IMG/VR virus record: IMGVR_UViG_2896595138_000002
Location: 1-34,565 of that record
Length of the DNA stretch: 34,565 nucleotides
Strand: one strand, 5' to 3'
Origin: a virus
Lineage: Duplodnaviria > Heunggongvirae > Uroviricota > Caudoviricetes
A program made the position numbers and the translations under genes. Within the stretch, counting starts at the first letter, position 1. The number at the start of each line of letters is the position of its first letter. The notes beneath the pieces are model-generated. The model was given only the letters and a program-made list of their open reading frames with translations. It searched no databases and was not told the origin of the DNA. Below are positions 9,303 to 33,531 of the stretch, piece after piece.

Positions 9303-9313
9303 ACATCCCCCTT

Positions 9314-9667
9314 TCAGCGGCGACGGTTAACGGCAGGCGGTACGCCCCGCCCAAGCCAGAGATGACAGCTTCCACCATCATCCGGCGAAACCCGGTCTAT
9401 CCAGAAGTTTTCCTCACCGATGGTCAGCGTGTCTCCACGCCGCAGTTGCCGCACATCATCAGTCCGGACAAACAGGGACGGGCTGGAGCCTTCAACGCGC
9501 ACGCCCTGTCCGGCATAGCTGATATTTTCAGGGTCATCAAAAACACCACGTATTACTGCGCCGGACTGCTCACCGGATGTCATGGTAGCTGACGTTCCCA
9601 TGTACCCGCGTATCGTTTCATCGGCGCGGGCAATGGCAGCATCGAACAGGTTATCGAAATCAGCCAC
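9314..9667 (-). CDS. FII: Lambda FII-like head-tail connector protein
   Basis: 117-aa ORF MADFDNLFDAAIARADETIRGYMGTSAT... Confidence 0.9.
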   Translation of the reverse strand: MADFDNLFDAAIARADETIRGYMGTSATMTSGEQSGAVIRGVFDDPENISYAGQGVRVEGSSPSLFVRTDDVRQLRRGDTLTIGEENFWIDRVSPDDGGSCHLWLGRGVPPAVNRRR

Positions 9668-9678
9668 AGCGCCTCCCG

Positions 9679-10074: not shown

Positions 10075-10115
10075 GGACTCCTCCACAGAGAGAAAATGGC
10101 CCCGAAGGGCCATGA

Positions 10116-11141: not shown

Positions 11142-11196
11142 AAAAAAATCCCGTAAAAAAAGCCGCACAGGCGGCCTTTAGTGATGAAGGGTAAGG

Positions 11197-11529
11197 TTAA
11201 AGGATGCTGATTGCCGTTCCGGCAAACGCGGTCCGTTTTTTCGTCTCATCGCTGGCAGCCTCCGGCCAGAGCACATCCTCATAACGGAACGTGCCGGACT
11301 TGTAGAACGTCAGCGTGGTGCTGGTCTGGTCAGCAGCAACCGCAAGAATACCAACGGCAGCACCGTCGGTGGTGCCATCCCACGCAACCAGCTTACGGGT
11401 GGAGGTGTCCGGCATCAGCGGGGTCATTGCAGGCGCTTTCGCACTCAATCCGCCGGGCGCGGTTGCGGTATGAGCCGGGTCACTGTTGCCCAGCGGCTGG
11501 TAATGGGTAAAGGTTTCTTTGCTCGTCAT
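11197..11529 (-). CDS. D: Lambda D-like head decoration protein
   Basis: [39 protein letters not shown]..., 110 aa. Confidence 0.9.
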
Positions 11530-11552
11530 AAACATCCCTTACACTGGTGTGT

Positions 11553-12856: not shown

Positions 12857-14121
12857 TCTTCTCCTCCTCTGTTGATTGTCGCAGTCCGGATTCAAATGCC
12901 GCAGCCGCCCAGGCGGGCGGTTTAAGACCGGCTGCACGGCGCTCCATCGTTTCACGGACCTGCTGGGCAAAAATTTCCTGATAGTCGTCACCGCGTTTTG
13001 CGCACTCTTTCTCGTAGGTACTCAGTCCGGCTTCTATCAGCATCACCGCTTCCTGTACTTCTTTCAGACCATCGATGGCCATACGACCGGAGCCTATCCA
13101 GTCACAGTTCCCCCAGGCGCTGCGGGCTTCCTGAAAGCTGAAACGCGCTTTTGAAGGTAACGTCACCACGCGGCGAACGATGGCCTCTTCCAGCCAGCAC
13201 AGAAACATCTGGCTCGCCTGACGGGATGCGACGAATTTTCGCCGCCCCATAAAGTACGCCCACGACTCGTTCGCACTGGCCCGTGCCGTGGAGTAGCTCA
13301 TCTGGGCGTAATTCCGGGAAAGCTGCTCATACGAGACACCCAGCCCGGCAGCGATATACCGCAACAGTGACTGCTCAAACACGGAGTAGCCGTTATCCGT
13401 GTCCTGAGCCGTCTGCAGGTTCAGTGAGTCCCCCGGCATCAGGTGCGGCACTTTTGCGCCTCCCAGACGGACCGGTGCTGCGGCGTAATACGCGGCAATT
13501 TCACCAATCCAGCCGGTCAGCTTGTCCCGCTGCTCCTTACTGTTCGCGCCCAGAATAAAATCCATCGCTGACTGCGTATCCAGCTCACTCTCAATGGTGG
13601 CGACATACATCGCCTTCACAATGGCGCTCTGCAGCTGCGTGTTCTGCAGTGTGTCGAGCATCTTCATCTGCTCCATCACGCTGTAAAACACATTTGCACC
13701 GCGGGTCTGCCCGTCCTCCACGGGTTCAAAAACGTGAATGAACGAGGCGCGCCCGCCGGGTAACTCACGGGGTATCCATGTCCATTTCTGCGGCATCCAG
13801 CCAGGATAGCCGTCCTCGCTGACGTAATATCCCAACGCCGCACCGCTGTCATTAATCTGCACACCGGCACGGCAGTTCCGGCTGTCGCCGGTATTGTTCG
13901 GGTTGCTGATGCGCTTCGGGCTGACCATCCGGAACTGTGTCCGGAACAGTCGCGAGGGACTGGTATCCCAGGTGGCCTGAACGAACAGTTCACCGTTAAA
14001 GGCGTGCATGGCCACACCTTCCCGAATCATCATGGTAAACGTGCGTTTCCGCTCAACGTCAATGCAGCAGCAGTCATCCTCGGCAAACTCTTTCCATGCC
14101 GCTTCAACCTCGCGGGAAAAA
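12837..14121 (-). pseudogene. B: Lambda B-like portal protein, 5'-truncated (about 105 N-terminal codons missing) by IS insertion
   Basis: ORF 12837..14165: gpB homology runs from ...FSREVEAAWKEFAEDDCCCIDVERKRTFTMMIREGVAMHAFNGELF... to ...EEEKSDSRAA; the first ~14 codons of the ORF are IS600-derived. Confidence 0.85.
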
Positions 14122-14941
14122 TTTCGCACGTATAAACATCTTTGATGCCAGCGAGGTACAACCATCCCTCCTGTGTGGCAACATACGTCAGGTCCGCCAC
14201 CCAGACCTGATTTGGTGCTGTAGGAGCGAACGTCTGGTTCAGCAGATTTGGCGCAACTGGCAGATTGTGGTTCGGGTTCGTAGTCGCTCTGAACTTGCGT
14301 TTCTGCTTACAGCGTAGCCTTAGCTCCTTACGAAGACGTGCCAGTCGGTCACGACCAACGATGATGCCATTCTCTGCCAGCTCCGTCTGGAGCCGCCGGG
14401 TTCCATATGTTTCGCGAGTGCGGATATGTGCCACCTTAATCTCCAGTTTTAGCCGCTCATCACTTTGTTTTCTGTCTGAGGGTTCATGCTGTACCCAGTT
14501 GTAATAACCGCTCCTGGATACACCAAATACCTGACACATCGCTTCAATGGGAAATTGTTGTCGCCATTGTTCGATTAACGCGTATTTTTCAGCGACTCCT
14601 GTGCAAAATACGCTGTTGCTTTTTTTAATATATCTCGCTCAAGGCGAGCTTCATTTAACGCCTTACGCAGTTGCAGAATTTCAGATTCCAGTTCAGCCAC
14701 CGTGCGGGAACCAGGAGTACCGAGCCCTTTTCTGGCGGCGGTAACCCATTGTCCTAAAGTGCCTTCAGGAAGGGATAATCGGGAAGCGCCTTCACTGATC
14801 GAAAGTTGATTTTCAAGAACCGTTCTGACAGCTTCGGCTTTGAACTCTTTAGAGTAACGTTGGGTTTTTCTGCTCATTATTAGCTCCTTCTGATGCCATT
14901 CTATTTCAGGAAGGAGTGTCCGTTAAACTCAGGCTACCTCA
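14122..14941 (-). mobile_element. IS600 (IS3 family), partial copy 1: left end + orfA + about 140 codons of orfB
   Basis: Left-end sequence TGAGGTAGCCTGAGTTTAACGGACACTCC (RC at 14919..14941); orfA at 14575..14877; identity to the other copies stops at 14122 where portal sequence begins. Confidence 0.85.
14575..14877 (-). CDS. IS600 OrfA (helix-turn-helix transposase subunit)
   Basis: 100-aa ORF MSRKTQRYSKEFKAEAVRTVLENQLSISEGASRLSLPEG...KKATAYFAQESLKNTR; A7 run at plus 14620..14626. Confidence 0.9.
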   Translation of the reverse strand: MSRKTQRYSKEFKAEAVRTVLENQLSISEGASRLSLPEGTLGQWVTAARKGLGTPGSRTVAELESEILQLRKALNEARLERDILKKATAYFAQESLKNTR

Positions 14942-15872
14942 GACTTTTGCTGGCCCGAAGACCAAATCCGAAGCGCCCGTTCTTTTCATCACGAAAGTTT
15001 TGCTCTATCTGCATTCGCCGACTGTATAACTTGATGATTTCTCGCGCTCTGAAGTCATTTGTACTGCTGAAGATCAACCAGGCTTCTTTTGCTGATTTGC
15101 TCTGTTCTTTGTCTGTTTTGTTTAAACCACTCTGACCTTTCGAACGTTTCTTTTTTCGCCCTTTTGCCGATTTCTTATAGGTGTAAAAATGCCCCCGGAT
15201 GCTTTTTTTCCTTTCTTTAACCAGCCTTCCAGCCCCCATATATTCCGGTGTTTTACATTCAGGGCTATCCGACACTTTTAACCATCTTTCAGGCGCGTTA
15301 TCGAGGCAATACTGAACGTTATTTCTGATCCGACCAATAAAATCCCAGCCCAGAGAAGTAATATGGTGAAACCATGCGCTCTGAAATCCAGCATCCGTGA
15401 CAATAATAACCCTGGCATCGGGGGGCAGGGATTGAGCAAGGGAATCAAGGAAATCATGTTGTATCAATGGATTATTTTGTTTTTCAGAAGGAACAACCTT
15501 ACTCAATAACGGAATGGAACGCCCGTCACACAGAAGGCTGGCACGAAGAACATGATGCTCCTGGGAGGGATAGCCACTCCAGTCTACGGCTATTACACAT
15601 AAAGATAACTGCCGTGTCAGCATTGAAGTGATATTCCTGAAAATCATTGGAATATCGCGATGGAGCGCCTCATTACCCATGAGGCGATCAATACGTTTGA
15701 TCTTATTCTTAACTTGTGCATTACCCGGCAAAAAACGTCCGATACTGGTCAGCGTCAGAGATGCTCCGTTGATTAACGCCACTGTGGCATCCATCAGGGC
15801 ATTTTGTCGGTACTGATGAAATGGTGCTAAGGCATCCCGGAAGAAATTCTGACATACTTTATGAACAGGCAT
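14942..15872 (-). pseudogene. IS10-like DDE transposase, C-terminal ~80 aa missing
   Basis: Homology ends at the IS600 junction, about 14941. Confidence 0.7.
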
Positions 15873-15954
15873 AGCAGTGATCTCATTGAATTGTTGGCAC
15901 AAATCAGTAGATCACATAATGCTATGTCTGTCTCGTTTTCTGGGGATTCCTCAG
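14942..15954 (-). mobile_element. IS4-family (IS10-like) element fragment, 3'-truncated by IS600 copy 1
   Basis: Transposase ORF 14934..15902 with IS10-like motifs (IKRIDRL, VDWS, LRAS, DAGF, KGRKKKRS, IYSKRMQIEQNFRD); terminus CTGAGGAATCCCC (RC) at about 15942..15954. Confidence 0.7.
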
Positions 15955-15982
15955 CCCAGAAGGGTGGGAATGGTGGACGTTT

Positions 15983-18084
<2,102 letters not shown>

Positions 18085-18110
<26 letters not shown>

Positions 18111-19964: not shown

Positions 19965-20135
19965 CTAGATTAAATCAATCTTGATATCATAGCTTTCAAG
20001 ACCAGTCATTTTTTCCCGTGCAGTAAACTGGATACTGGTAACTTCTTTCCCGGTCTTTTTCTTAAGCTCAATGATTTTTTTTGTTATATATTCAGAAATA
20101 TCTGCTTCTGTTTTTGTTTTTAGCTCTTCAATGTT
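19965..20135 (-). CDS. gnsB: GnsA/GnsB-family small protein
   Basis: MNIEELKTKTEADISEYITKKIIELKKKTGKEVTSIQFTAREKMTGLESYDIKIDLI (57 aa from the internal Met of ORF 19965..20231). Confidence 0.75.
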   Translation of the reverse strand, partial: NIEELKTKTEADISEYITKKIIELKKKTGKEVTSIQFTAREKMTGLESYDIKIDLI

Positions 20136-20310
20136 CATCATTTCCTCTTTTAGTCTGTTATGACTTTCCTGGTACACAGTAGTGTCAATTATATGGAGCA
20201 AACGTATAAAAGATAAGATGAAACATCGCAATAATCAACATACGACGGTCTAAATTTCACACAAACAGATAAAGATGATTATCATTTATTATCAATGCAT
20301 TAGAATCAAA

Positions 20311-20502
20311 TCAATTCAAGAGTCTCATTGCTGCTTCCAGAATTTCTTCTGAAGTTACATGTCGATCCGCTGTTACATAAATGACTTTATGATCTCCGGT
20401 CAGAGATGGAAACCCTGCAGCCATTACAGTGAGGTGTGTTGTTTCGCCATTTGGGTATTCACGCATGATGGTGTTAACTCCGGTCATCACTGGCACTACC
20501 AT
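20311..20502 (-). CDS. Hypothetical small protein
   Basis: 63-aa ORF MVVPVMTGVNTIMREYPNGETTHLTVMAAGFPSLTGDHKVIYVTADRHVTSEEILEAAMRLLN. Confidence 0.4.
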   Translation of the reverse strand: MVVPVMTGVNTIMREYPNGETTHLTVMAAGFPSLTGDHKVIYVTADRHVTSEEILEAAMRLLN

Positions 20503-20810
20503 TGCTGGTTCAGAGTTAAAAAAACTATTATTTTTTTCATATGTTACCGTAATATGTGAGTATCCATCGACTAGACACTAAGCAAAAAAGCTCCCGAAGG
20601 AGCCTTCATTTTCACTTTCTTAAATCTAACGACAGATGGCTAACATTTAAGTATTGTGAAATATTATCAAATGTAATCATCATTGATTTACAAAAGATAC
20701 ATTTTGCCCCGAAAGGATTTCTGTCAGAAACATCAAAAGATGTTGTTCTATACTGAGAACCATGGCAACACGGGCATCTAAAGTGAATATGGTTTGTAAT
20801 ATTTTCTACC

Positions 20811-21023
20811 TCAAAGTGCCACTACATGAACAGCTGCAGGGCCTTTAGGTCCGTTCTCAATACCAAATTCGACTTCCTGATTCTCAGTTAACGTTTTGAA
20901 ATCGTTGCTCTGAATAGCTGAGAAATGCACAAACACATCTTTGCTACCATCTTTCGGCGTGATGAAACCAAAACCTTTTTCAGGGTTAAACCATTTCACT
21001 AAACCAGTCATTTTGTTAGACAT
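20811..21023 (-). CDS. cspI: Cold-shock protein, CspA family
   Basis: 70-aa [70 protein letters not shown]; RNP1/RNP2 motifs. Confidence 0.9.
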
Positions 21024-21083
21024 TATTATTACCTTTTGAAGAAGTTACCCTTAAGATTTCAAGGATTTTGACTCATGGAAGAG

Positions 21084-22348
21084 TGAGGTAGCCTGAGTTT
21101 AACGGACACTCCTTCCTGAAATAGAATGGCATCAGAAGGAGCTAATAATGAGCAGAAAAACCCAACGTTACTCTAAAGAGTTCAAAGCCGAAGCTGTCAG
21201 AACGGTTCTTGAAAATCAACTTTCGATCAGTGAAGGCGCTTCCCGATTATCCCTTCCTGAAGGCACTTTAGGACAATGGGTTACCGCCGCCAGAAAAGGG
21301 CTCGGTACTCCTGGTTCCCGCACGGTGGCTGAACTGGAATCTGAAATTCTGCAACTGCGTAAGGCGTTAAATGAAGCTCGCTTTGAGCGAGATATATTAA
21401 AAAAAAGCAACAGCGTATTTTGCACAGGAGTCGCTGAAAAATACGCGTTAATCGAACAATGGCGACAACAATTTCCCATTGAAGCGATGTGTCAGGTATT
21501 TGGTGTATCCAGGAGCGGTTATTACAACCGGGTACAGCATGAACCCTCAGACAGAAAACAAAGTGATGAGCGGCTAAAACTGGAGATTAAGGTGGCACAT
21601 ATCCGCACTCGCGAAACATATGGAACCCGGCGGCTCCAGACGGAGCTGGCAGAGAATGGCATCATCGTTGGTCGTGACCGACTGGCACGTCTTCGTAAGG
21701 AGCTAAGGCTACGCTGTAAGCAGAAACGCAAGTTCAGAGCGACTACGAACCCGAACCACAATCTGCCAGTTGCGCCAAATCTGCTGAACCAGACGTTCGC
21801 TCCTACAGCACCAAATCAGGTCTGGGTGGCGGACCTGACGTATGTTGCCACACAGGAGGGATGGTTGTACCTCGCTGGCATCAAAGATGTTTATACGTGC
21901 GAAATTGTCGGCTACGCCATGGGAGCGCGCATGACAAAAGAGCTGACAGGTAAAGCCCTGTTTATGGCGCTCAGGAGCCAGCGCCCACCTGCCGGGCTAA
22001 TCCACCACCCTGATCGAGGTTCACAGTACTGCGCATACGATTACCGGGTCATACAGGAGCAGTTTGGTCTGAAAACATCAATGTCGCGTAAAGGTAACTG
22101 TTACGACAACGCTCCGATGGAAAGCTTCTGGGGAACGCTGAAAAATGAGAGCCTGAGCCACTATCGTTTTAATAACCGGGATGAAGCCATCTCAGTAATA
22201 CGGGAATACATTGAGATTTTCTACAATCGTCAGCGTCGTCACTCTCGTCTGGGGAATATCTCCCCGGCAGCCTTCAGGGAAAAATATCATCAGATGGCTG
22301 CTTAAAAAAAGAACAAATGGTAGTGTCCGCTATTGCCAGTACACCTCA
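21084..22348 (+). mobile_element. IS600 copy 2, complete, flanked by 3-bp direct repeat GAG
   Basis: Ends TGAGGTAGCCTGAG... and ...GCCAGTACACCTCA; GAG at 21081..21083 and 22349..22351; 1265 bp. Confidence 0.9.
21148..22305 (+). CDS. IS600 transposase as a single fused OrfAB reading frame (385 aa)
   Basis: A8 run at 21399..21406 (A7 in copies 1 and 3) joins orfA to orfB in one frame: ...DILKKSNSVFCTGVAEKYALIEQWRQQFPIEAMCQVFGVSR...; DDE domain present. Confidence 0.85.
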   Translation: MSRKTQRYSKEFKAEAVRTVLENQLSISEGASRLSLPEGTLGQWVTAARKGLGTPGSRTVAELESEILQLRKALNEARFERDILKKSNSVFCTGVAEKYALIEQWRQQFPIEAMCQVFGVSRSGYYNRVQHEPSDRKQSDERLKLEIKVAHIRTRETYGTRRLQTELAENGIIVGRDRLARLRKELRLRCKQKRKFRATTNPNHNLPVAPNLLNQTFAPTAPNQVWVADLTYVATQEGWLYLAGIKDVYTCEIVGYAMGARMTKELTGKALFMALRSQRPPAGLIHHPDRGSQYCAYDYRVIQEQFGLKTSMSRKGNCYDNAPMESFWGTLKNESLSHYRFNNRDEAISVIREYIEIFYNRQRRHSRLGNISPAAFREKYHQMAA

Positions 22349-22407
22349 GAGTCCTTTTTATTTAAATTTCACATTCAGCGCTAAAAATAATCCGATTTAA
22401 TATTAAT

Positions 22408-23434
<1,027 letters not shown>

Positions 23435-23539
23435 GGATATTTATCAGGATTTATCGGTTTCTGAACCCTAGATATGTTTATCTGTCCCGGCCTGTTGAAT
23501 CAGGCTGGGAAAAGGTAAAGACAATCAAGAGGATTATTT

Positions 23540-23812
23540 ATGGACAATAACACCATTTCTCTACAGGAGTTGCTCGACTGCATTTCCAGGCTTCGGGATG
23601 ATGTAAATGCCCTCACTGTTGCATTTTCATCTCTGGCCTTATCAATTCCCAGAGAACAAATGCAACCAACACTGGCATCGCTCCTGCTTGAATCACGCAA
23701 CCCCAAATGGTCCCAGGAACAACAAAATTCTTTCAAGTGGCTGGCGGCATTACTGGAAGAAAAATATGCTGGTAAAATTACCATTTCGGTGGAGTCTTCA
23801 GAGAATCAGTAA
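23540..23812 (+). CDS. Hypothetical 90-aa protein encoded antisense to the lysis cassette
   Basis: Strong SD (AAGAGG, 7 nt before ATG); predicted helical, non-membrane protein MDNNTISLQELLDCISRLRDDVNALTVAF... Confidence 0.5.
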   Translation: MDNNTISLQELLDCISRLRDDVNALTVAFSSLALSIPREQMQPTLASLLLESRNPKWSQEQQNSFKWLAALLEEKYAGKITISVESSENQ

Positions 23813-24122
23813 TTCTTCCTGGTAGCTTTCCTTTGTAGGTTATCCACACATTCTGCGCCTCTAAAATTATGGGGCGCTTTTCCGGCGACTGCTCATCCCC
23901 TTCACATAACCCGGCAGCAACATCCAGGAAGACCTGTCTGATGCTCATTCTGGCTGCTGCCTCATAAAACTCCAGCGCGGCACCTTCAACACGGTCCAGC
24001 GAGATGTCCAAGTCAAAAATTTCACCGTCAAAGCGTTTTTTGTCCCGTAACGCTAAAGTTACCGTAACTTTATTCTCAAAATTGCGGATCCCTTTCACAA
24101 TCAGTTCATAGTTTTGAGTCAT
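23778..24122 (-). CDS. Hypothetical 114-aa protein between holin and endolysin
   Basis: ATG 5 nt after the holin stop with GGGGAGAG SD; MTQNYELIVKGIRNFENKVTVTLALRDKKRFDGEIFDLDISLDRVEG... Confidence 0.6.
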   Translation of the reverse strand: MTQNYELIVKGIRNFENKVTVTLALRDKKRFDGEIFDLDISLDRVEGAALEFYEAAARMSIRQVFLDVAAGLCEGDEQSPEKRPIILEAQNVWITYKGKLPGRITDSLKTPPKW

Positions 24123-24126
24123 TGAA

Positions 24127-24342
24127 TTACTCTCCCCGTGCAGCCTTACGACGGTCCTCTCTGATTTTGAAATACAGGTTAGTCAGATATGTCAGCAGCC
24201 CAAACAGCCGACTCCCCAGCACGCCTATTGCCGCCCACTGAGACGGGGAAACCCTGTCCAGCAACTGCAGGAACCAGTAGCCCGTTCCCACCGCTGACGT
24301 GGTGTATGACACACCTGTTGTGATTTTTTCCATCTGGTCCAT
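24127..24342 (-). CDS. Class II holin (phage-21 S-type pinholin) with dual-start motif
   Basis: [44 protein letters not shown]...[21 protein letters not shown]; Met1 and Met4 dual starts. Confidence 0.85.
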
Positions 24343-24449
24343 ACCCCGTCTCCCGTTATCCGGAAGCTGACAACAATAAAAAAGCCACCAGTTAACTACT
24401 GATGGCTCTGATAACTCATGCAAGCGTCTCAGACGACCCACTGACACTA

Positions 24450-24853
24450 CCGGTGAGTTTAACGATACCTTCCATTTGACTGGCTCACTTTTTATGATGA
24501 TGCCGGTGCATTTATCTCCAGCACCAGACTTTCTATCTCAACGCCATACGTTGCATTTTTGGTAATATCCGTCAGCGTCAGTGCATTTAGTCCCACTGCC
24601 AGACTGTCTTTTATGGCCTGGAATGCCGGGCCAGTACGATGACGTAGTATCACTCCGGCTCAGTTGCACCACTGACCACCACATCACCTTCTGCTGCAAT
24701 CGCCTGCATCAGGGTATAAGGGGTTATGGCCACCGGACTACCAAACGGCTGCCAGCCCTCTTTCAGTTTATGTGTCAGCTTTTCCGCAAGATCTGACGGC
24801 GGCGCCGCCCTGACAACATCATAGTGTTTAAATGCCATGGTTCTTTCCACCAT
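24450..24853 (-). pseudogene. Small prophage protein (possibly DUF1737-type), apparently frameshifted
   Basis: ORF 24650..24853 (MAFKHYDVVRAAPPSDLAEKLTHKLKEGWQPFGSP...) stops, while protein-like sequence (...[45 protein letters not shown]) continues to 24450 in another frame. Confidence 0.45.
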
Positions 24854-25097
24854 CTGAAAAATAATTCTTTAAAATACCTGACATGTAATACAGAAAAAAC
24901 ACAAAACCATACCTTAAATAAAAACCTGATTATCAAGCAGATATGCATGGATAAACTACAAGACGAGATATAAACCACCCTGCATTTAAATAAACAATAA
25001 ACAACATCAGAAAAATAATTCTGCTCTATGGTTTAATTCAAAAATATCATTTATACTTTTCAGAACATCACCAGAAAGGCATAAACAAGGAAACTAA

Positions 25098-25433
25098 ATG
25101 AAGTGGATTGTGATTGATACAGTTATCCAGCCATCATGCGGAATATCTTTTTCAGTCATATGGAGTAAAATAAAATTAATAATCTGGTATCAATCGGATG
25201 CTTTCTTACCTCCTGAAAGTATATTTACACTGACTCACACAGGCATCATGCTCAATAACAAAGTGCTACCTGTAACCATTTACAACGTAGTACCATTCAA
25301 TAAAACATTCTGGAATTTAATCAAAAACAGCCAGGAATGCCCTACAAATACAGATAACGTATTGAATGAATGCTTTAATAACCGTTGCACTCTGCAAATA
25401 TGTCCTTATGGACTAAAACAACAAAGTCCATAA
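25098..25433 (+). CDS. Hypothetical Cys-rich 111-aa protein in an AT-rich island
   Basis: AGGA SD 6 nt before ATG; six Cys including [26 protein letters not shown]; no recognisable family. Confidence 0.35.
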
Positions 25434-25451: not shown

Positions 25452-25489
25452 ACAAAATCAATATAAACAGCCCCTCCGGAGAGGGCTGG
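25452..25489 (-). terminator. Rho-independent terminator-like hairpin (minus strand)
   Basis: Near-palindrome CAGCCCCTCCGGAGAGGGCTGG followed on the minus strand by TTTATATTGATTTTGT. Confidence 0.45.
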
Positions 25490-26087
25490 AGAGTGGCGCT
25501 ATGTGCCATTGCATGGTGCCGGGTGCCTCCCGGTGAATTCAGTACCAGCACCTGAATCCGCGATTATCCCATATACCTACTCGCTGATTTCCCCTCCGCA
25601 CAGGGGGATTCACCATGCCAGTTTCTTTTAACAAACTCCCGCAAACCAGACAACAGTCAACCGCCTGAATTGTGAAGTATTTAAAAATTTCTCCCGCTAA
25701 CTGATACCCGGCTAACAGTCTGGCGTTTTCTTTTTCAGCAACGGGAAAGCAACAACCACCACACCCGCCACCAGCACACCGTCAGCCAGCACTGACATTA
25801 TCCGGCTGCTGCAATGCCATTCACAAAAACAGTAAGCAATCACTTTTTACCGTAACAGGTGATAATCCAGATATGTATCCTGAGGTGTACTGGCAATAGC
25901 GGACACTACCATTTGTTCTTTTTTTAAGCAGCCATCTGATGATATTTTTCCCTGAAGGCTGCCGGGGAGATATTCCCCAGACGAGAGTGACGACGCTGAC
26001 GATTGTAGAAAATCTCAATGTATTCCCGTATTACTGAGATGGCTTCATCCCGGTTATTAAAACGATAGTGGCTCAGGCTCTCATTTT

Positions 26088-26741
26088 TCAGCGTTCCCAG
26101 AAGCTTTCCATCGGAGCGTTGTCGTAACAGTTACCTTTACGCGACATTGATGTTTTCAGACCAAACTGCTCCTGTATGACCCGGTAATCGTATGCGCAGT
26201 ACTGTGAACCTCGATCAGAGTGGTGGATTAGCCCGGCAGGTGGGCGCTGGCTCCTGAGCGCCATAAACAGGGCTTTACCTGTCAGCTCTTTTGTCATGCG
26301 CTCTCCCATGGCGTAGCCGACAATTTCGCACGTATAAACATCTTTGATGCCAGCGAGGTACAACCATCCCTCCTGTGTGGCAACATACGTCAGGTCCGCC
26401 ACCCAGACCTGATTTGGTGCTGTAGGAGCGAACGTCTGGTTCAGCAGATTTGGCGCAACTGGCAGATTGTGGTTCGGGTTCGTAGTCGCTCTGAACTTGC
26501 GTTTCTGCTTACAGCGTAGCCTTAGCTCCTTACGAAGACGTGCCAGTCGGTCACGACCAACGATGATGCCATTCTCTGCCAGCTCCGTCTGGAGCCGCCG
26601 GGTTCCATATGTTTCGCGAGTGCGGATATGTGCCACCTTAATCTCCAGTTTTAGCCGCTCATCACTTTGTTTTCTGTCTGAGGGTTCATGCTGTACCCAG
26701 TTGTAATAACCGCTCCTGGATACACCAAATACCTGACACAT
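26088..26741 (-). CDS. IS600 OrfB (DDE integrase domain), 3' end frameshifted
   Basis: ORF ends ...ESFWER*, other copies read ...ESFWGTLKNESLSHYRF...; C-run 26089..26091 is 3 long. Confidence 0.8.
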   Translation of the reverse strand: MCQVFGVSRSGYYNWVQHEPSDRKQSDERLKLEIKVAHIRTRETYGTRRLQTELAENGIIVGRDRLARLRKELRLRCKQKRKFRATTNPNHNLPVAPNLLNQTFAPTAPNQVWVADLTYVATQEGWLYLAGIKDVYTCEIVGYAMGERMTKELTGKALFMALRSQRPPAGLIHHSDRGSQYCAYDYRVIQEQFGLKTSMSRKGNCYDNAPMESFWER

Positions 26742-26776
26742 CGCTTCAATGGGAAATTGTTGTCGCCATTGTTCGA

Positions 26777-27079
26777 TTAACGCGTATTTTTCAGCGACTC
26801 CTGTGCAAAATACGCTGTTGCTTTTTTTAATATATCTCGCTCAAGGCGAGCTTCATTTAACGCCTTACGCAGTTGCAGAATTTCAGATTCCAGTTCAGCC
26901 ACCGTGCGGGAACCAGGAGTACCGAGCCCTTTTCTGGCGGCGGTAACCCATTGTCCTAAAGTGCCTTCAGGAAGGGATAATCGGGAAGCGCCTTCACTGA
27001 TCGAAAGTTGATTTTCAGGAACCGTTCTGACAGCTTCGGCTTTGAACTCTTTAGAGTAACGTTGGGTTTTTCTGCTCAT
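26777..27079 (-). CDS. IS600 OrfA
   Basis: 100-aa ORF identical in pattern to copy 1 except L20P (RTVPENQ). Confidence 0.9.
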   Translation of the reverse strand: MSRKTQRYSKEFKAEAVRTVPENQLSISEGASRLSLPEGTLGQWVTAARKGLGTPGSRTVAELESEILQLRKALNEARLERDILKKATAYFAQESLKNTR

Positions 27080-27258
27080 TATTAGCTCCTTCTGATGCCA
27101 TTCTATTTCAGGAAGGAGTGTCCGTTAAACTCAGGCTACCTCAACAGGATGGACTTAGCAATGGCTGCTCCTGGCACAAAGCGGACAGTGATCACCGTTC
27201 TTACGACTACTTTCTGACTTCCTTCGTGACTTGCCCTAAGCATGTTGTAGTGCGATAC

Positions 27259-27282
27259 TTGTAATGACATTTGTAATTACAA
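27259..27282 (+). promoter_or_regulatory. relBE operator-like inverted repeats (TTGTAAT-N-ATTACAA) in the relB promoter region
   Basis: cTTGTAATgacatTTGTAATTACAAg 13 bp upstream of the relB start. Confidence 0.65.
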
Positions 27283-27294
27283 GAGGTGTAAGAC

Positions 27295-27534
27295 ATGGGT
27301 AGCATTAACCTGCGTATTGACGATGAACTTAAAGCGCGTTCTTACGCCGCGCTTGAAAAAATGGGTGTAACTCCTTCTGAAGCGCTTCGTCTCATGCTCG
27401 AGTATATCGCTGACAATGAACGCTTGCCGTTCAAACAGACACTCCTGAGTGATGAAGATGCTGAACTTGTGGAGATAGTGAAAGAACGGCTTCGTAATCC
27501 TAAGCCAGTACGTGTGACGCTGGATGAACTCTGA
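27295..27534 (+). CDS. relB: RelB antitoxin
   Basis: 79-aa ORF MGSINLRIDDELKARSYAALEKMGVTPSEALRLMLEYIADNERLPFKQTLLSDEDAELVEIVKERLRNPKPVRVTLDEL. Confidence 0.95.
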   Translation: MGSINLRIDDELKARSYAALEKMGVTPSEALRLMLEYIADNERLPFKQTLLSDEDAELVEIVKERLRNPKPVRVTLDEL

Positions 27535-27821
27535 TGGCGTATTTTCTGGATTTTGACGAGCGGGCACTAAAGGAATGGCGAAAGCTGGGCTCGACGGTAC
27601 GTGAACAGTTGAAAAAGAAGCTGGTTGAAGTACTTGAGTCACCCCGGATTGAAGCAAACAAGCTCCGTGGTATGCCTGATTGTTACAAGATTAAGCTCCG
27701 GTCTTCAGGCTATCGCCTTGTATACCAGGTTATAGACGAGAAAGTTGTCGTTTTCGTGATTTCTGTTGGGAAAAGAGAACGCTCGGAAGTATATAGCGAG
27801 GCGGTCAAACGCATTCTCTGA
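27534..27821 (+). CDS. relE: RelE mRNA interferase toxin
   Basis: 95-aa ORF MAYFLDFDERALKEWRKLGSTVREQLKKKLVEVLESPRIEANKLRGMPDCYKIKLRSSGYRLVYQVIDEKVVVFVISVGKRER...; ATGA overlap with relB. Confidence 0.95.
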   Translation: MAYFLDFDERALKEWRKLGSTVREQLKKKLVEVLESPRIEANKLRGMPDCYKIKLRSSGYRLVYQVIDEKVVVFVISVGKRERSEVYSEAVKRIL

Positions 27822-27892
27822 ACCAAAGCATGACATCTCTGTTTCGCACCGAAGGTGACACTTCTGCTTTGCGTTGACAGGAGAAGCAGGCT

Positions 27893-28048
27893 ATGAAGCA
27901 GCAAAAGGCGATGTTAATCGCCCTGATCGTCATCTGTTTAACCGTCATAGTGACGGCACTGGTAACGAGGAAAGACCTCTGCGAGGTACGAATCCGAACC
28001 GGCCAGACGGAGGTCGCTGTCTTCACAGCTTACGAACCTGAGGAGTAA
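27893..28048 (+). CDS. hokD: Hok-family type I toxin (HokD/RelF-like), 51 aa
   Basis: MKQQKAMLIALIVICLTVIVTALVTRKDLCEVRIRTGQTEVAVFTAYEPEE, translated directly from the sequence (below the ORF-track size cutoff). Confidence 0.85.
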   Translation: MKQQKAMLIALIVICLTVIVTALVTRKDLCEVRIRTGQTEVAVFTAYEPEE

Positions 28049-28116
28049 GAGACCCGGCGAGTGAGAAATCCCTCGCCACCTCTGATGTGGCAGGCATCCT
28101 CAACGCACCCGCACTT

Positions 28117-28147
28117 AACCCGCTTCGGCGGGTTTTTGTTTTTATTT
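28117..28147 (+). terminator. Rho-independent terminator after hokD
   Basis: AACCCGCttcgGCGGGTTTTTGTTTTTATTTT. Confidence 0.75.
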
Positions 28148-28265
28148 TCAACGCATTTGAAATTCTGGATGGTGCCGGAATAGAATCAAAAATACTTAAG
28201 TAGCGCGCAGGGATAAGAGGGATGGACCCCGAACAGGGGAGTGCTATTTATCTGGAAGGATTCTG

Positions 28266-28517
28266 ATGATGAACATCGAAGAACTGCGTAAAATTTTTTG
28301 TGAAGATGGCCTCTATGCTGTGTGCGTTGAAAATGGAAATATTGTTAGTCATTACCGCATTGTGTGTTTGCAAAAAAATGGGGCTGCGTTAATTAATTTT
28401 GTGGATGCCCGAGTGACGGACGGATTTATCTTGCGCGACGGTGAGTTTGTCACTTCATTACAGGCATTGAAAGAGATCGGAATAAAAGCTGGCTTTTCTG
28501 CTTTTTCAGAAGAATAA
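28266..28517 (+). CDS. rem: Small prophage protein of unknown function (Rem-like position and size)
   Basis: 83-aa ORF immediately downstream of relBE-hokD, as for rem in Qin; identity by position and length only. Confidence 0.5.
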   Translation: MMNIEELRKIFCEDGLYAVCVENGNIVSHYRIVCLQKNGAALINFVDARVTDGFILRDGEFVTSLQALKEIGIKAGFSAFSEE

Positions 28518-28582
28518 ACTCATCTACAATCTTGCGCGGGCTGAACTCCCGCTGAGTAACACCGTGCCACCGGAGAAAACCG

Positions 28583-28861
28583 ATGGCACGCAACGCAAAA
28601 TATTACAATCATGATAATTCGACCGTTCTTGCCCACACGCACGAGCGGTATTCTCACGCATTTAAGTCAGACTGGTACCAGCATCCCTCATGCACTGAAG
28701 AACAGGCCGAATGGCTCATTCAGTGTTACCGCAGGCGCGGATGCGAGGTTAAAAAAGCCCTTAGCCTCGACTACCGTCACTGGATAATCTCCGTCAGGCT
28801 CCCTTACTCCGAACAGCCACCGCGTCCGTCCCGCACATTCCAGCAACGGATCTGGAGGTAA
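28583..28861 (+). CDS. Hypothetical 92-aa protein, stop/start-coupled to the following gene
   Basis: ORF ends TAA 1 nt before the GTG start of the next gene; Cys/His-containing. Confidence 0.4.
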   Translation: MARNAKYYNHDNSTVLAHTHERYSHAFKSDWYQHPSCTEEQAEWLIQCYRRRGCEVKKALSLDYRHWIISVRLPYSEQPPRPSRTFQQRIWR

Positions 28862-28862
28862 C

Positions 28863-29912
28863 GTGCGGGTATTACTTCGACCTGTTCTGGTTCCGGAACT
28901 CGGGCTGGTGGTCCTTAAGCCCGGTCGTGAATCCATGCCGGTATTCCACAATACCCGGTTACTGGTGGAGCCGGAACCGAAAAGCATGCGTAATCTGCCG
29001 TCCGGGGTCGTTCCTGCCGCTCGCCAGCCGCTGGTGGAAGACAAAACATTGCTGCCGTTTTTCAGTAACGCACGGGTGATTCGTGCTGCTGGTGGTGCTG
29101 GTGCATTGTCTGACTGGCTGTTGCGCCATATTAAATCCTGCCAGTGGCCACACGGCGATTATCATCACAGCGAAACCGTCATTCACCGTTATGGTACCGG
29201 CGCAATGGTGTTGTGCTGGCACTGCGACAACCAGCTGCGTGACCAGACATCCGAATCACTCGAGCAACTTGCTCATCAAAACCTGTCAGCATGGATGATT
29301 GACGTCATCGGTCACGCAATAAGCGGTACGCAGGAGCGTGAACTATCTCTGGCTGAATTATCCTGGTGGGCGGTCCGCAATCAGGTGGCGGACGCGCTAC
29401 CGGAAGCGGTATTACGTCGTTCGCTGGGGTTGCGTGCGGAAAAAATCCGCTCAATGTTCCGTGAAAGCGACATCGTACCGGGAGAGCAGACCGCCACCAG
29501 CATACTGAAACAGCGCACAAAAAATCTTGCGCCGCTGCCTCACGCCCACCAGCAACAGAACCCACCACAGGAAAAGACGGTGGTCAGCATTGCCGTTGAT
29601 CCTGAGTCTCCGGAATCTTTCATGAAACGACCTAAACGTCGCCGCTGGGTTAACGAGAAATACAAACGCTGGGTGAAGACACAGCCGTGTGCGTGTTGTG
29701 GTAAGCCAGCCGACGATCCCCATCACCTGATTGGTCATGGTCAGGGCGGAATGGGGACAAAATCTCACGATATTTTCACGCTACCGCTGTGTCGGGAGCA
29801 TCACAACGAGCTTCATGCGGATCCTCTGGCGTTCGAAGAAAAGCATGGTTCTCAGGTTGATTTAATTTTTCGTTTTCTTGATCACGCCTTTGCAACTGGC
29901 GTGCTTGGGTAA
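28863..29912 (+). CDS. ydfU: DUF968-like protein with C-terminal HNH-type Cys/His motif (YdfU-like)
   Basis: 349-aa ORF; ...QPCACCGKPADDPHHLIGHGQGGMGTKSHDIFTLPLCREHHNELH...; sits between rem and rusA/Q. Confidence 0.6.
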   Translation: MRVLLRPVLVPELGLVVLKPGRESMPVFHNTRLLVEPEPKSMRNLPSGVVPAARQPLVEDKTLLPFFSNARVIRAAGGAGALSDWLLRHIKSCQWPHGDYHHSETVIHRYGTGAMVLCWHCDNQLRDQTSESLEQLAHQNLSAWMIDVIGHAISGTQERELSLAELSWWAVRNQVADALPEAVLRRSLGLRAEKIRSMFRESDIVPGEQTATSILKQRTKNLAPLPHAHQQQNPPQEKTVVSIAVDPESPESFMKRPKRRRWVNEKYKRWVKTQPCACCGKPADDPHHLIGHGQGGMGTKSHDIFTLPLCREHHNELHADPLAFEEKHGSQVDLIFRFLDHAFATGVLG

Positions 29913-29924
29913 AAGAGGTGACTG

Positions 29925-30282
29925 ATGCTCATAGATTTGGTTTTACCTTACCCGCCGACGGTGAACACTTACTGGCGACGCCGTGGCAGCACATATTTTA
30001 TCTCGGAGGAGGGAAAGCGTTATCGCCGGGCTGTGGCGCTTATTGTTCGCCAGCAGCGGCTGAAATTAAGCCTGTCCGGAAGGCTGGCGATAAAGGTGAT
30101 TGCAGAGCCACCGGATAAGCGTCGTCGCGACCTGCGACAATATCCTGAAAGCACCGCTGGATGCGCTGACGCATACGGGAGTGTTAATGGACGATGAGCA
30201 GTTTGATGAAATCAATATCGTTCGTGGTCAGCCAGTATCTGGTGGACGTCTGGGGGTGAAGATTTACCCCATAATGCATTAA
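29925..30282 (+). pseudogene. rusA: RusA-like Holliday junction resolvase, frameshifted
   Basis: ORF 29925..30197 (MLIDLVLPYPPTVNTYWRRRG...EPPDKRRRDL) then ORF 30100..30282 (...DNILKAPLDALTHTGVLMDDEQFDEINIVRGQPVSGGRLGVKIY) in the +1 frame; single-base insertion near 30121. Confidence 0.75.
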
Positions 30283-30296
30283 GAGCAGGTCAAAAA

Positions 30297-31118
30297 ATGA
30301 AACTGGAAGATTTACCGAAATACTACTCCCCAAAATCCCCTGGCCTGACCGATGCATCGGCCTCAACGTCAAAAGATGCGCTGAGTATCACTGATGTGAT
30401 GGCCGCGCAGGGCATGACACAGAATCGGGCTGAGATGGGTTTTTCTGCGTTCCTGGGGAAAATGGGCATCAGTATGAATGACAGGGCGCGGGCAACAGAA
30501 TTACTGGCAGATTATGCACTCAGTCGGTGCGATCGTGTGGCGGCGTTGAGAAAACTTCCGGCAGAAATAAAACCGGTAGTGATGCGCATTATGGCTTCGT
30601 ACGCTTTTGAGGATTATGCCCGCAGCGCAGCGAGTAAAAAGCAGTGCCCTTGTTGCTATGGGGAAAAATTTATTGAAAGCATAGTTTTTACAAACAAGGT
30701 CCAGTATCCGGATGGTAAGCCGCCGGTATGGGCAAAGTGTACGAAAGGTGTGTATCCGTCTTACTGGGAAGAATGGAAAAAAGTCAGGGAGGTGGTAAAA
30801 GTTGCCTGTCCGGAGTGTGGCGGAAAGGGTGAGGTTTCCACCGCCTGTAAGGATTGCCGTGGGCGTGGTGTCGCCATTCATCGTGAAGAGTCGGTAAAAC
30901 GTGGTATGCCTGTTATCAGAGACTGCCAGCGTTGTGGTGGTCGTGGCTATGAAAGACTACCATCAACGGAGGCATTTAATGCTATATGCGAGGTGACAAA
31001 CCAGATAACACGCGCGTCATGGGAAAAAACAGTTAAGAAATTTTATGATGCGCTGGTGACCCGGTTTGATATTGAAGAAGCATGGGCTGAGCGGCAGTTA
31101 AAAAAGGTAACTAGGTAA
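30297..31118 (+). CDS. Late-gene antiterminator Q-like protein with DnaJ-type CxxCxGxG zinc-finger repeats
   Basis: 273-aa ORF just upstream of a promoter/terminator pair and tRNAs; motifs CPECGGKG, CKDCRGRG, CQRCGGRG; placement after rusA typical of lambdoid Q. Confidence 0.6.
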   Translation: MKLEDLPKYYSPKSPGLTDASASTSKDALSITDVMAAQGMTQNRAEMGFSAFLGKMGISMNDRARATELLADYALSRCDRVAALRKLPAEIKPVVMRIMASYAFEDYARSAASKKQCPCCYGEKFIESIVFTNKVQYPDGKPPVWAKCTKGVYPSYWEEWKKVREVVKVACPECGGKGEVSTACKDCRGRGVAIHREESVKRGMPVIRDCQRCGGRGYERLPSTEAFNAICEVTNQITRASWEKTVKKFYDALVTRFDIEEAWAERQLKKVTR

Positions 31119-31131
31119 CAAGGTAACAAGG

Positions 31132-31159
31132 TTGATTTTTCCGGAATCTGTGGTAAATT
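31132..31159 (+). promoter_or_regulatory. Candidate late promoter (PR'-like): TTGATT-16 nt-TAAATT with TG extension
   Basis: Motif match 14 bp after the Q stop codon. Confidence 0.4.
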
Positions 31160-31208
31160 CGTCATAACGATGGGCGTTTTATGCCTGACGTTAGAAGAGT
31201 TTCTACAA

Positions 31209-31232
31209 CCCGCCGCTGAGCGGATTTTTTAT
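31209..31232 (+). terminator. Candidate tR'-like terminator (short GC stem + T-run)
   Basis: CCGCtgaGCGG then ATTTTTTATT. Confidence 0.35.
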
Positions 31233-31269
31233 TGCGAAATTAATTACGGACCGTTATTATTCTGCTCCC

Positions 31270-31345
31270 GGCCCTTTAGCTCAGTGGTGAGAGCGAGCGA
31301 CTCATAATCGCCAGGTCGCTGGTTCAAATCCAGCAAGGGCCACCA
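31270..31345 (+). tRNA. ileZ: tRNA with CAU anticodon (Ile2/ileZ-like, or Met)
   Basis: 76 nt GGCCCTTTAGCTCAGTGGTGAGAGCGAGCGACTCATAATCGCCAGGTCGCTGGTTCAAATCCAGCAAGGGCCACCA; cloverleaf folds with a 7-bp acceptor stem and encoded CCA. Confidence 0.85.
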
Positions 31346-31443
31346 TCACAAACCGGCATTAGCTTATCAGGAAGAGCAGACGACACGATAACAGGGTTGT
31401 TGGTGCGGGGCGGGTCCCGATGGCGGTCCATTATCGGTATTCA

Positions 31444-31520
31444 GCGTTGTTAGCTCAGCCGGACAGAGCAATTGCCTTCTAAGCAATCGGTCACTGGTTC
31501 GAATCCAGTACAGCGCGCCA
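31444..31520 (+). tRNA. argN: tRNA-Arg (anticodon UCU), argN/argU-like
   Basis: 77 nt GCGTTGTTAGCTCAGCCGGACAGAGCAATTGCCTTCTAAGCAATCGGTCACTGGTTCGAATCCAGTACAGCGCGCCA; anticodon loop CTTCTAA. Confidence 0.85.
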
Positions 31521-31630
31521 TATTCATTCTTCCAGATTCCTTCCGGCAGAGCCTTATACTGAAATATACTTGGCTCAGGATATTGTTGAAAATATTATAT
31601 GTTTGTCAAAAATAAAAGTTCTGTTAAGTA

Positions 31631-31984
31631 TTGATTGAGTATTTGTTATACGGTCTAATGGTTTTTTCAGCATTAAATATTTATCATTCATATGGTGCGG
31701 GTAGAGTGAATATTGATGAGGCGTCGGGGTGTTTCATCCTTAGGCAGCGTATTGATATAGTCAATGCAGCACGAGCAAAGGCCTTCAGCCGTTTGACAGT
31801 TTTGTTCTGTACTCCTGATCGTCTTTCGGGAAGAGACGTTATTATTCTGAATAGTGATGCTATACAGAGGGTTTGCGATGAGTTCATGGTTGCTAATTCA
31901 GAATTATTTGCTCTTGTTCAGGAGTACAACAGAATAGCCAGGACCTGTGGTATGGATGAACTTCGGATTACTCATCTGGGGTAG
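31631..31984 (+). CDS. Hypothetical protein (117 aa) in the Q/tRNA moron slot, probably 3'-truncated by IS600
   Basis: AT-rich ORF; its stop codon TAG ends 1 nt before the IS600 left end; no recognised family; first in-frame ATG at 31658. Confidence 0.35.
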   Translation: MIEYLLYGLMVFSALNIYHSYGAGRVNIDEASGCFILRQRIDIVNAARAKAFSRLTVLFCTPDRLSGRDVIILNSDAIQRVCDEFMVANSELFALVQEYNRIARTCGMDELRITHLG

Positions 31985-31985
31985 A

Positions 31986-33250
31986 TGAGGTAGCCTGAGT
32001 TTAACGGACACTCCTTCCTGAAATAGAATGGCATCAGAAGGAGCTAATAATGAGCAGAAAAACCCAACGTTACTCTAAAGAGTTCAAAGCCGAAGCTGTC
32101 AGAACGGTTCCTGAAAATCAACTTTCGATCAGTGAAGGCGCTTCCCGATTATCCCTTCCTGAAGGCACTTTAGGACAATGGGTTACCGCCGCCAGAAAAG
32201 GGCTCGGTACTCCTGGTTCCCGCACGGTGGCTGAACTGGAATCTGAAATTCTGCAACTGCGTAAGGCGTTAAATGAAGCTCGCTTTGAGCGAGATATATT
32301 AAAAAAAAGCAACAGCGTATTTTGCACAGGAGTCGCTGAAAAATACGCGTTAATCGAACAATGGCGACAACAATTTCCCATTGAAGCGATGTGTCAGGTA
32401 TTTGGTGTATCCAGGAGCGGTTATTACAACCGGGTACAGCATGAACCCTCAGACAGAAAACAAAGTGATGAGCGGCTAAAACTGGAGATTAAGGTGGCAC
32501 ATATCCGCACTCGCGAAACATATGGAACCCGGCGGCTCCAGACGGAGCTGGCAGAGAATGGCATCATCGTTGGTCGTGACCGACTGGCACGTCTTCGTAA
32601 GGAGCTAAGGCTACGCTGTAAGCAGAAACGCAAGTTCAGAGCGACTACGAACCCGAACCACAATCTGCCAGTTGCGCCAAATCTGCTGAACCAGACGTTC
32701 GCTCCTACAGCACCAAATCAGGTCTGGGTGGCGGACCTGACGTATGTTGCCACACAGGAGGGATGGTTGTACCTCGCTGGCATCAAAGATGTTTATACGT
32801 GCGAAATTGTCGGCTACGCCATGGGAGAGCGCATGACAAAAGAGCTGACAGGTAAAGCCCTGTTTATGGCGCTCAGGAGCCAGCGCCCACCTGCCGGGCT
32901 AATCCACCACTCTGATCGAGGTTCACAGTACTGCGCATACGATTACCGGGTCATACAGGAGCAGTTTGGTCTGAAAACATTAATGTCGCGTAAAGGTAAC
33001 TGTTACGACAACGCTCCGATGGAAAGCTTCTGGGGAACGCTGAAAAATGAGAGCCTGAGCCACTATCGTTTTAATAACCGGGATGAAGCCATCTCAGTAA
33101 TACGGGAATACATTGAGATTTTCTACAATCGTCAGCGTCGTCACTCTCGTCTGGGGAATATCTCCCCGGCAGCCTTCAGGGAAAAATATCATCAGATGGC
33201 TGCTTAAAAAAAGAACAAATGGTAGTGTCCGCTATTGCCAGTACACCTCA
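31986..33250 (+). mobile_element. IS600 copy 4, complete, no target-site duplication
   Basis: Both termini present; flanks AGA / TCA differ; 1265 bp. Confidence 0.9.
32050..33207 (+). CDS. IS600 fused OrfAB transposase (385 aa)
   Basis: A8 run at 32301..32308, as in copy 2. Confidence 0.85.
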   Translation: MSRKTQRYSKEFKAEAVRTVPENQLSISEGASRLSLPEGTLGQWVTAARKGLGTPGSRTVAELESEILQLRKALNEARFERDILKKSNSVFCTGVAEKYALIEQWRQQFPIEAMCQVFGVSRSGYYNRVQHEPSDRKQSDERLKLEIKVAHIRTRETYGTRRLQTELAENGIIVGRDRLARLRKELRLRCKQKRKFRATTNPNHNLPVAPNLLNQTFAPTAPNQVWVADLTYVATQEGWLYLAGIKDVYTCEIVGYAMGERMTKELTGKALFMALRSQRPPAGLIHHSDRGSQYCAYDYRVIQEQFGLKTLMSRKGNCYDNAPMESFWGTLKNESLSHYRFNNRDEAISVIREYIEIFYNRQRRHSRLGNISPAAFREKYHQMAA

Positions 33251-33531
33251 TCATGCTGTACAGTATCTGGTTTTTGTCGTTCTCCCCCAGTTCAAACCAG
33301 GTCACCACACCTTTCACCCGCCGCTGTACGTCATCGCCCTGCCATACCGTCAGGTATGGCCATTTTGTCCAGCACCTGCGCAAATTCAAGGGAAAGAAAC
33401 TGCTGACTGACCAGAGAAAGGTCGAGGGAAAAAAGTGAAGAGAGTGACTGGGTGAGATGAAAGGAAACCACCGCAAAAGCATCCGGTGGCAGGCCGTCCA
33501 CTTCCAGTGTGAAACGTAATCCGGTTGACAT
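33251..33531 (-). pseudogene. vgrG: VgrG (type VI secretion spike) N-terminal fragment, frameshifted and truncated by IS600
   Basis: MSTGLRFTLEVDGLPPDAFAVVSFHLTQSLSSLFSLDLSLVSQQFLSLEFAQVLDKMA then YLTVWQGDDVQRRVKGVVTWFELGENDKNQILYSM in the other frame; GGAGG SD before ATG at 33531; homology stops at the IS600 boundary. Confidence 0.7.

Follow-up and report, generated by a model that had tools for sequence, protein, structure and literature searches.

The stretch analysed here, called the window throughout, comprises the 34,565 nucleotides of virus record IMGVR_UViG_2896595138_000002 (Caudoviricetes) and holds a lambdoid prophage whose antiterminator gene Q is inverted relative to the lysis and morphogenesis genes. 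The phage genes from the left end of the window to about position 25,880 lie on the minus strand throughout, whereas the block from relB through Q to two tRNA genes lies on the plus strand between oppositely oriented copies of the insertion sequence (IS) IS600. On the sequences compared, a large chromosomal inversion together with a local flip of 4.8 kb, both by IS600-IS600 recombination, is the best explanation, and one that we consider highly probable. Over the 20.5 kb compared, the window matches CP026845.1 (assembly GCA_002950375.1) with 100% identity, and by offset it corresponds to about positions 536,595-571,159 of that chromosome's plus strand. The prophage is a heavily decayed lambdoid element of the Qin type, integrated at ydfJ in a Shigella-type chromosome.

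Self-BLAST and a repeat finder located four IS600 copies in the window:

14120-14941, minus strand: copy 1, IS positions 1-822 only
21084-22348, plus strand: copy 2, a simple insertion between the Rz-like gene and cspI
25881-27143, minus strand: copy 3, 1263 bp, with orfA at 26777-27079
31986-33250, plus strand: copy 4, 1265 bp, its left end abutting ORF117 and its right end abutting vgrG

Assignment to IS600 was based on a length of about 1264 bp, TG...CA terminal inverted repeats and a DNA identity of at least 95%. Copies 2, 3 and 4 measure 1263-1265 bp and have the ends TGAGGTAGCC...ACACCTCA; the copies are 99.5-99.7% identical to features annotated as 'IS3-like element IS600 family transposase' in Shigella and E. 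coli plasmids, and their open reading frames (ORFs) encode the Pfam domains HTH_Tnp_1, HTH_21, rve, rve_3 and rve_2. Copies 3 and 4, which an earlier reading of the sequence alone (the original prediction) had named as the boundaries of the Q block, are inverted with respect to each other and 99.6% identical, differing by three substitutions and two single-base indels. That reading was also right that neither has a target-site duplication of its own: in IS orientation, copy 3 is flanked by TGT/GGA and copy 4 by AGA/TCA. The flanks of copy 2, GAG/GAG, form a clean 3-bp target-site duplication.

The right end of copy 3 abuts the late side of a site designated T2, and its left end abuts a fragment of ydfV (ydfV'). 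From relB to the tRNAs, everything between copies 3 and 4 is on the plus strand:

27144-27270, minus strand: 5' fragment of ydfV, at breakpoint T1
27295-27534, plus strand: relB, Qin-type toxin-antitoxin gene
27534-27821, plus strand: relE, Qin-type toxin-antitoxin gene
27893-28048, plus strand: hokD, Qin-type toxin-antitoxin/moron gene
28266-28517, plus strand: rem, Qin-type toxin-antitoxin/moron gene
28583-30282, plus strand: segment with a 92-amino-acid ORF, ydfU and rusA
28863-29912, plus strand: ydfU (DUF968)
29925-30197 as called, plus strand: rusA, frameshifted, 90-amino-acid product
30297-31118, plus strand: Q antiterminator, 273 amino acids, Pfam Antiterm PF03589 (E 6e-55)
31119-31528, plus strand: Q-linked conserved segment, a 150-bp spacer and two tRNA genes
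31270-31345, plus strand: tRNA with CAT anticodon
31444-31520, plus strand: tRNA-Arg(TCT)
31631-31984, plus strand: ORF117, TTG start, 117 codons, without a Pfam match, uncalled in the source record, ending at the left half of T2

The strands and coordinates originally given for the inversion proved exact, and the comparison with syntenic prophages that had been proposed as a check was carried out. In Qin of E. coli K-12, relB-relE-hokD-rem-ydfU-Q and essQ-ydfR-rrrQ-rzpQ share one strand. In an intact relative from E. coli GB089, int, cI, relB, Q, the tRNAs and the lysis, terminase and tail genes follow one another in a single direction, and the identical Q protein was co-oriented with lysis in all ten genomic contexts retrieved. 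With K-12 Qin, GB089 and the ten identical-Q loci all in agreement, the arrangement in the window is not a chance one. Here Q stands on the plus strand and the genes from J to the holin on the minus strand, across IS600; the usual lambdoid control module, in which Q is followed by a co-oriented lysis-morphogenesis operon, is not found in the window. The DNA of the block itself is 97% identical to the relBE-hokD-rem-ydfU-rusA-Q stretch of GB089, and the locus lacks the int-cI-replication part of the prophage.

All three breakpoints are resolved to the base. Against the GB089 locus, window positions 27144-31986 align with 20001-24836 on the plus strand and 25510-25879 with 25204-24834 on the minus strand; because these alignment ends coincide, copy 3 on its right and copy 4 on its left border a single reference site, T2. 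This site reads GGGGTAGATACAT in ten references (also ...CATCTGGGGTAGATACATATC...), with the cut point between GGGGTAGA and TACAT. In the window, ...GGGGTAGA runs into the IS left end at copy 4, and at copy 3 the IS right end is followed by GGATACATATC (also GGATACAT). The trinucleotide at the site is AGA in the ten references, and in the window AGA left of copy 4 and GGA right of copy 3, two of the three bases matching. Two E. coli loci (L004 and L007) hold both sides of T2 as one continuous piece at 98.5-98.9% identity. Indeed, when the junction was rebuilt with 600 nt per side, the IS removed and the block un-flipped, the query found a single-piece match at 99.2%, and at least 80% of it was covered in 1110 of 5426 complete E. 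coli genomes. The adjacency of the two sides in the references and the continuity of the rebuilt junction argue that one IS600 insertion was split by later recombination: T2 is best read as a single insertion with a 3-bp duplication (AGA, one copy now GGA), the halves of which later became separated. Thus, the original statement that the flanks do not reconstitute a simple two-copy exchange, and that more than one event is likely, stands; the flanks nevertheless tell more than was then seen in them, as those on the right of copy 3 and on the left of copy 4 nearly rebuild a 3-bp duplication.

The features that adjoin the outer ends of the two copies are as follows:

25459-25880, minus strand: late side of T2, IS end followed by GGATACAT...
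25712-25843, minus strand: DUF3927 ORF, on the late side of T2
33251-33531, minus strand: 5' fragment of vgrG, a frameshift allele common in E. coli

At T1, the left end of copy 3 lies within ydfV, where the reference reads ...CACAAT and then ACAGGATGG. The third breakpoint, at the right end of copy 4, lies in a chromosomal vgrG gene of the type VI secretion system, cut between ...CATACCT and TCATGC of the reference. Beyond copy 4 come the 5' part of vgrG, yncH (34353 onwards), yncG, ansP, yncE and pqqU, with no phage DNA. On the K-12 map, yncH (1.527 Mb) and ydfV (1.646 Mb) are about 118 kb apart, and the orientation of yncH relative to ydfI-ydfJ is opposite in the window to that in K-12. The ancestral adjacencies vgrG5'-vgrG3', ORF117-DUF3927 and ydfV5'-ydfV3' are thus replaced by vgrG5'-ORF117 and ydfV5'-DUF3927, with vgrG3'-ydfV3' as the predicted third. 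Three changed adjacencies form a three-break cycle and therefore call for at least two inversions. The extra event that had been suspected is indeed needed, and can be refined to a large chromosomal rearrangement, since the DNA to the right of copy 4 is vgrG-yncH rather than phage. As to the vgrG fragment itself, its frameshift (33331-33531; 66-amino-acid product) is found widely in E. coli; vgrG had thus already become a pseudogene when IS600 inserted.

The proposal that recombination between inverted IS600 copies flipped the Q block is thereby supported both by the synteny of E. coli prophages and by base-level mapping of the breakpoints, and the likely history can be laid out as follows. 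IS600 would have inserted at three sites: at T2, between the Q-tRNA module and the DUF3927-STnc100-lysis region; at T1, in ydfV just upstream of relB; and in vgrG next to yncH. Homologous (RecA-type) recombination among these 1.26-kb repeats would have followed. An exchange between the ydfV and vgrG copies would invert a chromosomal segment of about 118 kb on the K-12 scale and detach the int-cI-replication half of the prophage, leaving an intermediate, yncH-vgrG'-IS600-relB...Q-IS600-lysis, that would still be co-oriented. A further exchange between the two inverted copies flanking ydfV'-relB...Q-tRNA would then flip the 4.8-kb block; either order of the two inversions is equally possible. 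The IS orientations that this model demands, derived from the flanks, are those observed. Its reciprocal junctions would read ...CATACCTTCA joined to TGAGGTAGCC (3' side of vgrG and IS600 left end) and CTGCACAATACA joined to TGAGGTGTACTGG (3' side of ydfV and IS600 right end).

What the flip did to late transcription depends on where the late promoter lies. In a locus with the same Q and a different downstream region (L003), the shared sequence ends at window position 31528, which puts the late promoter and qut probably in the 150-bp spacer between Q and the tRNAs. Their cognate position is most likely 31119-31269, where a consensus scan gave a weak sigma-70-like match (31232-31260); such scans returned weak matches only, and no qut or PR' site was demonstrated by them. 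Q now faces IS600 and the antisense strand of vgrG, and so would this putative promoter, which would leave holin-lysozyme-Rz and the morphogenesis genes with no Q-dependent promoter and late transcription presumably lost. Lambdoid Q-modified polymerase resists terminators; thus, the IS insertion alone might be tolerated, and the inversion would be decisive. The practical effect today is small, because the early half is gone from the locus and many other lesions are present. A more daring idea, to which we give very little credence, is that the Q block, lying between inverted IS600 copies, would work as a reversible flip-flop, a stochastic, RecA-dependent on/off control of prophage-driven lysis in this Shigella lineage. 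In the on-state, transcription by Q-modified polymerase would start at the late promoter, cross IS600 and reach the largely intact holin/lysozyme/Rz-like cassette; in the off-state, the cassette would be silent. If so, a clonal population would hold both states of the block.

Several points weigh against the two-inversion history. The reciprocal junction (vgrG 3'-IS600-ydfV 3'/flxA) was not retrieved, and the large inversion is therefore seen from one side only. Neither the predicted ydfV-side junction nor the existing IS600/ydfV' junction had an exact-pattern match in representative genomes, a collection without this lineage. The duplication at T2 is imperfect, AGA against GGA, and needs a later point mutation or an imprecise insertion. 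Q acts in trans, and a promoter situated on the late side of T2 would make the functional uncoupling less severe. Moreover, when the rare variants of the lysozyme, the truncated RusA and the VgrG fragment were looked up, the layout of the window occurred in one complete genome only, CP026845.1; the same look-ups returned one sister genome rearranged otherwise and short contigs stopping at IS ends. A flip between IS bodies alters none of the four junctions between flanks and IS ends, and the junctions of copies 3 and 4 are the same in either orientation, so the short-read contigs of related isolates cannot discriminate between the orientations.

These last points bear on the rival that survives best, namely, an assembly artefact or a mixed population in which the true or majority state is the co-oriented yncH-vgrG'-IS600-relB...Q-IS600-lysis. 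Inverted 1.26-kb repeats 4.8 kb apart could presumably flip repeatedly. Nevertheless, copies 3 and 4 can be told apart at five positions, and a 1.26-kb repeat would be short relative to long reads; we regard this rival as improbable. A single in-situ inversion between copies 3 and 4 of an otherwise intact prophage would agree with the inverted copies that exactly bound the block and with the one flank pair that maps to one site. However, the second pair fails, TGT (ydfV) having no match in TCA (vgrG), the DNA past copy 4 is chromosomal backbone rather than the early region of a prophage, and one inversion cannot give three changed adjacencies. A history this simple is very unlikely.

Slightly less probable again is an origin from two lambdoid prophages, one supplying the Q block and the other the lysis and morphogenesis genes, each with an IS600 and joined by a chromosomal rearrangement. 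The region is widely common to lambdoid prophages (one block of it, block B, matches 4816 of 5426 E. coli genomes), and the T2 trinucleotides are one base apart, as such an origin would allow. Yet IS600 would have had to insert twice, independently, into exactly the same position and facing the same way; single continuous E. coli loci match both sides of T2 at about 98.5-99% identity; and the left end of the window is occupied by the Qin attachment site, ydfJ-ydfK-ynfT. The inverted repeats around the block, and the invertase PinQ encoded by K-12 Qin, might finally suggest a segment inverted by a site-specific invertase or a composite transposon of IS600-block-IS600, but both models are scarcely credible and were rejected on flanks and gene content: the genes called between positions 12925 and 40197 of the source record encode no recombinase domains save those of IS transposases; no pin gene occurs in the window, whose left end, unlike K-12 Qin, lacks pinQ; the outer flanks, TCC and TCA, do not form a duplication, and in no reference are their sequences contiguous; and homologous exchange accounts for inner and outer flanks alike.

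The two-inversion history gains support from the sister genome, CP026846.1, in which the same lysis cassette (locus L014, 2622838-2643347) has been separated in another way. On one side it is joined to pqqL-gadB-gadC via an IS600-like copy that is 96% identical and sits at a different site, 385 bp closer to iraM. On the other side, the ortholog of copy 2 joins it straight to ydfJ, and all morphogenesis genes are gone. This is a separate event in which ISs parted the lysis genes from both Q and the morphogenesis genes, and the lysis region is a recombination hotspot. In the window, the region comprises:

22408-25433, minus strand: lysis region, cut off from Q
22408-22905, minus strand: Rz-like gene
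22925-23434, minus strand: lysozyme gene
23778-24122, minus strand: DUF1327 gene
24127-24342, minus strand: holin gene
24650-24838, minus strand: DUF1737 gene
25098-25433, plus strand: iraM/PmrD-like gene

The lysozyme has an altered C-terminus (169 versus 177 amino acids), and the same lesion is present in CP026846.1. Just on the late side of the IS600 breakpoint, a strong Rfam match (117 bits; 25459-25647, minus strand) identifies the prophage small RNA STnc100, and a GC-rich terminator at 25488-25468 ends the match. STnc100 might conceivably be a PR'-tR' leader RNA, but no convincing promoter was found upstream of it, and the literature consulted makes no such statement.

Within the Q block, the 90-amino-acid RusA product is seen only in this genome and in nine short contigs, and is a lineage-specific lesion. 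The CAT-anticodon tRNA at 31270-31345 is called tRNA-Met by ARAGORN, and its GB089 ortholog is tRNA-Ile in RefSeq (ileX-like, with a lysidine-type reading).

The IS600 copies also differ in ways that point to traffic among them. Copy 3 matches the IS600 consensus save for a 1-bp deletion at IS position 1047, which breaks orfB. Copy 4 is a mosaic, with a copy 2-like patch at positions 299-446 (299T, an added A, 446C) amid consensus-like stretches. Copy 2 differs at six sites from its ortholog in CP026846.1 (L014 11086-12345), which has the consensus base at all six, and this suggests gene conversion from another IS600 variant. Such mosaicism implies exchange among IS600 copies. The slippery run for the orfA/orfB -1 frameshift is A7G in copies 1 and 3 and A8G in copies 2 (about 21399-21406) and 4 (about 32301-32308). 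The eighth A creates a continuous ORF for a 385-amino-acid OrfAB (21148-22305 and 32050-33207), and in both copies it is linked to the single-nucleotide differences 299T and 446C. A protein index gives both OrfAB variants from this genome only, as the window's own copies; three plasmid IS600 copies elsewhere align ungapped over the run and apparently also have A8. The A8 form, a constitutive fused transposase if genuine, may reflect either a true hyperactive allele or an error in the homopolymer.

At copy 2, a match to the cspA-type thermoregulator (20780-21131, minus strand) covers the cspI 5' region, and its last roughly 48 nt enter the left end of the IS; the insertion lies at or in the cspI leader or promoter. 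Between gpW and the portal gene, nested IS debris fills 14120-15970: the 5' 822-bp stump of copy 1 runs straight into the truncated portal gene, and its left end adjoins a partial ISSfl1 (IS4 family).

The remainder of the window has the following order:

Left end: ydfI, ydfJ (internal deletion), ynfT and ydfK, the attachment region of cryptic prophage Qin
Minus strand, from the left: J fragment, I, K, in-frame tape-measure/L fusion, G/T, V, U, split Z, head genes
Minus strand, continued: portal gene truncated by IS600, partial ISSfl1, W, split terminase A, Nu1
Minus strand, continued: gnsB-cspI, Rz-like gene, lysozyme gene, DUF1327 gene, holin gene, DUF1737 gene

In comparison with E. coli, ydfJ (at about 352) has lost some 1.2 kb internally. 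The morphogenesis genes form a lambda-like module (Nu1, A, W, B, C, D, E ... J) with heavy deletions. Decay is extensive across its region (1466-18110), with J shortened to 571 amino acids, an in-frame fusion of the tape-measure gene H with L (4600-6747), a split Z (8755-9302), and terminase A divided into ORFs of 421 and 230 amino acids (16186-18110).

The event is an ordinary IS-mediated rearrangement of a Shigella-type genome, of a kind already known and without a new principle, and fits the known IS-driven genome decay in Shigella. Its value is as a base-resolution record of how one IS600 insertion downstream of Q may have been the pivot for at least two recombination events that cut a prophage apart. 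By turning the late-gene activator away from its genes, the flip would be an effective 'grounding' of the prophage. On the practical side, synteny-based prophage callers will mis-delimit such loci, and the orientation of IS-bounded blocks cannot be checked by short reads.

The closest parallels are the IS-mediated inversions of Shigella, whose branches carry 103 of 114 reconstructed inversions; IS-mediated inversions are far commoner there than in E. coli, and rearrangement hotspots are hit repeatedly by independent IS insertions (Seferbekova et al., 2021; PMC8072062). As in those cases, inverted copies of an abundant IS3-family element stand at the breakpoints, the copies have lost their own target duplications, E. 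coli relatives show the segment as colinear, and the locus has been reused for different rearrangements in a sister genome. Here, however, a 4.8-kb flip is nested at the edge of a rearrangement of about 118 kb (K-12 map), within a prophage regulatory module; the published study used synteny blocks of at least 5 kb, and the present case is not described there. With Qin of K-12 and its intact relatives, such as the GB089 prophage at ydfJ/rspB, the window shares the attachment region ydfI-ydfJ-ydfK-ynfT, the relBE-to-Q block, cspI-gnsB and a lysis region of the essQ/rrrQ/rzpQ type. In those prophages Q is co-oriented with lysis, whereas in the window the block has been turned round and the int-cI half cut off, and the lambda-like morphogenesis module has suffered heavy deletion. 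IS-driven grounding of lambdoid prophages has been reported in Shigella (PMC6379469), and the sequence of immobilisation by IS insertion followed by rearrangement is common to such prophages and to this one; in contrast to them, the present prophage carries no toxin cargo, and its inactivation goes beyond insertions and deletions to include inversion of the Q module.

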